The translations under genes and the position numbers were made by a program. The notes below the pieces were generated by a model. The model was not told where the DNA came from. It did not search any database and saw only the letters and a list, made by a program, of their open reading frames with translations. A stretch of 64,000 nt of DNA from Escherichia coli (lineage in GTDB: Bacteria > Pseudomonadota > Gammaproteobacteria > Enterobacterales > Enterobacteriaceae): assembly GCF_003018255.1 (NCBI RefSeq), contig NZ_CP027440.1; one strand, written 5' to 3'. Positions 23,500 through 24,538 of the stretch are shown in pieces. Position 1 is the first letter of the stretch, and every line of letters starts with the position of its first letter.

Positions 23500-24538
23500 A
23501 TGGGGCAACAAAAGCAGCGTAATCGACGTTGGGTTCTGGCCTCGCGTCCGCATGGCGCGCCGGTTCCGGAGAATTTCCGTCTTGAAGAAGATGATATCGC
23601 CACACCGGGTGAAGGACAGGTGTTACTGCGCACAGTTTATTTGTCACTGGACCCGTATATGCGTGGACGTATGAGCGATGAGCCATCTTATTCACCGCCG
23701 GTTGATAATTGGTGGCGTAATGGTCGGCGGTACGGTGAGCCGTGTTGTGGAGTCGAATCATCCTGATTACCAGCCTGGCGACTGGGTGCTGGGCTACAGT
23801 GGATGGCAGGACTATGACATATCCAGTGGTGATGATCTGGTGAAACTTGGCGATCATCCGCAAAATCCATCGTGGTCGCTGGGTGTGCTGGGGATGCCAG
23901 GCTTTACCGCTTATATGGGGCTGCTGGATATCGGTCAGCCCAAAGAGGGCGAAACATTGGTTGTTGCTGCGGCGACAGGTCCTGTGGGGGCGACGGTGGG
24001 TCAAATCGGCAAACTTAAAGGTTGCAGGGTGGTGGGGGTGGCCGGTGGCGTGGAAAAATGCCGCCATGCTACTGAGGTGCTGGGCTTCGATGTTTGTCTT
24101 GACCATCACGCGGATGATTTTGCCGAACAACTGGCGAAAGCGTGCCCAAAAGGTATTGATATCTATTATGAAAACGTGGGCGGTAAGGTATTTGATGCAG
24201 TGCTACCTTTACTTAATACATCTGCGCGCATTCCCGTTTGTGGCTTAGTGAGCAGCTATAACGCTACAGAGCTACCACCCGGTCCGGATCGTTTACCTCT
24301 GCTGATGGCTACGGTGCTGAAAAAACGTATTCGCTTGCAAGGATTTATTATCGCTCAGGATTATGGTCACCGCATCCAAGAGTTTCAGAAGGAGATGGGG
24401 CAATGGGTGAAAGAGGATAAAATCCACTACCGCGAAGAAATTACTGACGGTTTAGAGAATGCGCCACAGACGTTTATCGGCCTGCTGAAGGGTAAAAACT
24501 TCGGCAAAGTGGTGATCCGCGTGGCGGTTGATGATTAA
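23500..24538 (+). pseudogene. curA: NADPH-dependent curcumin/dihydrocurcumin reductase (MDR family), interrupted by an apparent +1 frameshift near 23706
   Basis: N-terminal 89 codons in frame 1 (ATG 23500, AGGAGA site, ORF ends TGA 23766) and remaining about 256 codons in frame 2 (ORF 23678..24538); total length 1039 nt = 345 codons + stop + 1 extra nt. Confidence 0.75.

Follow-up and report, generated by a model that had tools for sequence, protein, structure and literature searches.

The window, a 64,000-nucleotide stretch of Escherichia coli DNA, contains a curA gene that is very probably disrupted by a genuine single-A insertion, making it a recent pseudogene that is fixed in one lineage and whose activity is expected to be lost. 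The gene affected is known and non-essential, and the case is that of an ordinary lineage-specific pseudogene with no novel biology. Its importance beyond annotation is small, and for annotation it is best described as a frameshifted curA pseudogene, and neither as two hypothetical open reading frames (ORFs) nor as an assembly error to be removed by polishing.

CurA is an LTB4-dehydrogenase-type medium-chain reductase. The E. coli enzyme, also named YncB, is an NADPH-dependent curcumin/dihydrocurcumin reductase (Hassaninasab et al. 2011 PNAS, as cited in PMC9996706), and its sequence is recognized in the window once the extra base is removed. The repaired 345-aa protein is identical to WP_001317810.1, which the annotations of the nearest genomes give as the curA product, matches the K-12 allele (WP_000531462.1) at 339 of 345 residues (98%), and scores 606.6 bits against the NCBIfam CurA equivalog model NF058644, above the curated whole-protein cut-off of 440 bits. 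It also aligns over residues 8-340 with V. vulnificus CurA 5ZXN (E = 4e-160), an intact protein from another genus for which crystal structures 5ZXN and 5ZXU have been described (Park et al. 2018, as cited in PMC9996706); the aligned span takes in the segment around the frameshift, and the comparison serves solely as evidence for conservation of the disrupted region. The genomic context is that of an ortholog, with the gene order mnaT-curA-mcbR-pqqU kept and flanks collinear with those of strains 104, JNE112863, and K-12, and with an unchanged mcbR ~200 nt downstream of curA. The locus and its synteny are thus the same as those of intact E. coli curA, and the DNA is that of the WP_001317810.1 allele apart from one base, but an A is inserted after codon 69 and full-length CurA is not encoded. 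A functional CurA is specified by a single uninterrupted ORF of ~345 codons, which here is broken after codon 69, and judged from its sequence the locus is a curA pseudogene and not a functional member.

The organization of the locus largely agrees with a preliminary description of this DNA, which had recognized a curA-type reductase split over two overlapping frames (Table 1). Both ORFs are present as described and overlap by 89 nt (23678-23766), the proposed start codon is preceded by the AGGAGA site that had been noted, and the arithmetic of a 1039-nt gene composed of 345 codons, a stop, and one extra base holds. The curA annotations of strain 104, JNE112863, and K-12 likewise begin at the ATG corresponding to 23500. 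The codon counts given for the two frames need revision: the 89 codons assigned to frame 1 do correspond to an ORF of 88 aa plus a stop, but only the first 69 are native, and the ~256 codons said to remain in frame 2 number 276 (codons 70-345). The 69 native codons match NF058644 positions 1-61 and differ from K-12 CurA residues 1-69 by one substitution, I33V. Within the downstream frame, the ATG of native Met74 is the start chosen by gene callers for a 272-aa fragment, and it is a candidate re-initiation site.

Table 1. Features of the interrupted curA locus, with positions numbered from the first nucleotide of the window
Feature	Position	Strand	Description
Shine-Dalgarno-like AGGAGA	23489..23494	+	5 nt 5' of the curA ATG; read in the sequence
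curA	23500-24538	+	1039 nt = 345 codons + stop + 1 base
ORF 1	ATG 23500 to TGA 23764-23766	+	88 aa + stop
curA codons 1-69, original frame	23500..23706	+	Assigned by translation; contain predicted substrate-site residues Y53 and Y64
ORF 2	23678-24538	+	286 aa, +1 frame relative to ORF 1
AA dinucleotide, frameshift site	23707..23708	+	One base is the insertion; reference GAT-ATT vs window GATAATT
Out-of-frame tail	23707..23766	+	19 missense codons + premature TGA (23764-23766)
curA codons 70-345 + TAA (24536-24538)	23708..24538	+	+1 frame; Rossmann NADPH-binding domain (AAATGPVG), Y253
Internal ATG (native Met74), candidate re-initiation site	23720..23722	+	GGTGG 4 nt upstream; context ATAATTGGTGGCGTA-ATG

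Alignment with the intact curA genes of strains 104, 2009C-3133, and JNE112863 identifies the extra A as the sole difference over 1241 nt. The insertion can be placed equivalently at 23707 or 23708, between codon 69 (GAT, Asp) and codon 70 (ATT, Ile), and it changes T-A-T to T-AA-T without forming a homopolymer run. An alignment to reference curA had been proposed as a check of the preliminary description, and it confirms the gene, the +1-base lesion, and the identity of the inserted base, although the position estimated earlier, around 23706, is 1-2 nt off; deletion of the extra A in silico gives the restored peptide that had been predicted. Reference curA is not itself split: K-12 and all of the closest relatives have it as a single 1038-nt coding sequence. 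The best explanation is duplication of an A at the junction of codons 69 (GAT) and 70 (ATT) of curA, after which translation from the normal start gives 69 native and 19 missense residues and terminates at 23764-23766, with the other 276 codons out of frame.

Two alternatives had been left for the extra base, an indel from sequencing and a true inactivating mutation, and the presence of the lesion on other contigs and in other runs bears out the latter. The exact 88-aa frameshift product is encoded on 27 contigs in a public protein collection (NCBI genomes and Logan assemblies), the longest of which is 4,892,666 bp, and the 272-aa downstream product is encoded on 26 NCBI and Logan contigs. Logan assemblies ERR3653889, SRR16940972, and ERR4456071 match the window over 6267, 3489, and 9485 nt, respectively, each with 0 mismatches, and SRR25144985 matches it over 17605 nt with 1 mismatch (99.994%); all four contain GATAATT. 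The insertion is therefore present in at least four runs, where support is counted as assemblies of the source lineage other than the source record. Judging by the single SNP in 17.6 kb, some of these runs at least probably come from different isolates; all of them could be re-sequencings of one clone, and the inserted base would be real even so. Over its first 32 kb, the window differs from JNE112863, the closest complete genome, by 4 SNPs, a difference of one 21-bp repeat unit, and the extra A, and across the 64 kb the only further single-base indels are a compensated pair in narZ and an artifact where the alignment ends at an IS boundary (32067).

Against this background it is extremely unlikely that sequencing or assembly introduced the extra A into this one record and that the strain has an intact curA. 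Single-base indels are the commonest type of assembly error, and the insertion is absent from all 5426 complete RefSeq E. coli genomes, but the same base recurs in at least four runs that were assembled independently under separate accessions, the T-AA-T site offers no homopolymer run, and the window contains no other single-base coding indel relative to its nearest relative save the compensated pair, which lies in a divergent recombined block. A noisy assembly is likewise ruled out by the scarcity of other indels relative to JNE112863, none of which is an uncompensated single-base coding indel, and the 27 contigs with the frameshift product, together with the four run assemblies with identical DNA, rule out sequencing error. 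There is next to no chance that the split instead reflects programmed +1 ribosomal frameshifting that, as in prfB, yields regulated amounts of full-length CurA. The locus resembles a prfB-type system in having overlapping frames related by +1, with the upstream frame closed by a stop codon; a stop codon at the end of the overlap can stimulate +1 shifts, and a ribosome moving into the +1 frame at any point of the 89-nt overlap would join the two ORFs. However, prfB-type frameshifting uses a CUU-UGA site and an upstream Shine-Dalgarno stimulator, both of which are lacking in the window curA: a motif scan of 23650-23770 found no prfB-like CUU-UGA, slippery heptamer, run of A or of T, or internal Shine-Dalgarno stimulator, and thus no shift signal. 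A prfB-type arrangement would also be expected to be conserved in two frames among relatives, but curA has a single frame in thousands of genomes, including all of the closest genomes listed, and the extra A is all that distinguishes the closest relatives, so the split is a newly arisen mutation and no conserved site of recoding. Moreover, if the ribosome changed frame at the stop codon, 19 wrong residues would be retained within a conserved segment. With the motif absent and the split unconserved, programmed frameshifting is ruled out.

A genuine insertion is expected to abolish the enzyme. Three aromatic residues of E. coli CurA, Y53, Y64, and Y253, are predicted to line the curcumin site (PMC9996706). 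Y53 and Y64 are on the 5' (88-aa) fragment and Y253 is on the 3' fragment, together with the AAATGPVG NADPH domain. In LTB4DH-type MDR enzymes a single polypeptide combines the glycine-rich NADPH motif with the substrate-site tyrosines, which is not the case here. Because neither product has a complete active site, loss of both curcumin and dihydrocurcumin reductase activity is expected, and the prediction for strains of this lineage is that CurA no longer provides them with curcumin reduction. It is very improbable that a partly functional product persists, either as a 272-aa enzyme re-initiated at Met74 or as two associating fragments. Translational coupling is conceivable, in that ATG 23720 sits 44 nt before the premature stop and has GGTGG 4 nt upstream, and the 272-aa fragment retains the whole NADPH domain and scores 491.1 bits on NF058644 (model positions 66-334), above the cut-off of 440. 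The first 73 catalytic-domain residues are nevertheless missing from that fragment, Y53 and Y64 of the predicted substrate site among them, and the absent segment is conserved in V. vulnificus CurA. The 88-aa product as encoded ends in a tail of 19 unrelated residues and scores 92.1 bits on NF058644, below the same cut-off, and no natural two-piece homologue was seen.

The inactivated allele appears to be both rare and young. A megablast search with window positions 23400-24640 against 5426 complete RefSeq E. coli genomes gives a match in 5413, the best of which are 99.9% identical over a 1240-nt span with one gap and are thus one base shorter than the query. Since even the best match has this gap, the insertion is present in 0 of the 5426 complete genomes, which indicates that it is recent and private to one lineage and makes it usable as a clean and unique marker for that lineage. 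Scans for the exact 37-nt allele gave 0 hits in a one-genome-per-species collection and 0 hits in JGI metagenome contigs, consistent with a rare allele. Alignment with intact alleles reveals no second lesion in the curA pseudogene, and, recombined blocks aside, about 1 SNP per 8 kb separates the window from its nearest intact relatives. These features point to one recent insertion event that was probably fixed in one narrow lineage.

Inactivation of curA is not confined to this lineage. With curA alone as the query, at least 80% of the gene is kept in 4363 of the 5426 complete genomes, ~790 keep only the first 68 bp (window 23500-23567), joined to part of mcbR, and 271 have no match, such that about 20% of complete E. 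coli genomes are without curA. In EcPF18 (NZ_CP054219.1, 3501-3724 of the extracted region), the 68-bp curA stub adjoins an mcbR fragment and both are annotated as partial pseudogenes, an arrangement that represents a curA-mcbR deletion. The window and such deletions are alike in that curA has been lost in a natural lineage, but the EcPF18 type is a deletion that fuses 68 bp of curA to an mcbR fragment, whereas the window has a point insertion that leaves mcbR and the rest of curA intact. Together with the frameshift, this distribution shows that E. coli can dispense with curA as an accessory function, and a frameshift in it is therefore unsurprising; its loss was presumably without selective cost. 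A more speculative reading, with only a slim chance of being correct, is that loss of curA, by frameshift here and by the curA-mcbR deletion or complete absence in about 20% of complete genomes, is adaptive and reflects convergent selection against the reductase in some host or diet niches, or that the 272-aa fragment from Met74 keeps a changed activity.

Several other features of the window are of note. The tehB-ydcL intergenic region contains a perfect 21-bp tandem repeat at 8483-8566 (CTTTTTCGGCATTGACTATGT, 3.0 copies), which has one unit fewer in JNE112863, and an overlapping 15-bp repeat at 8483-8513. Several small toxin or toxin-antitoxin genes form a cluster in the interval 13700-22000 (hicA/hicB, ortT, and yncL); they are annotated in a collinear relative and look intact and ordinary. 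Two ISAs1-family copies (32459-33753 and 39123-40415) are ~96% identical to each other, each with a 378-aa transposase ORF (32607-33743 and 39269-40405), and enclose the remains of a vgrG gene together with a 1386-aa Rhs core ORF (34426-38586); in JNE112863 the first copy is directly preceded by one more ISAs1 copy in tandem. SNPs relative to JNE112863 are clustered at 45000-50900 and 54000-57900, with 163 in narH-narZ and 41 in fdnG-fdnH, compared with a density of ~1 per several kb elsewhere, and this clustering suggests that the two regions are imported recombination blocks. The compensating pair of 1-base indels in narZ is at 48594 and 48601.
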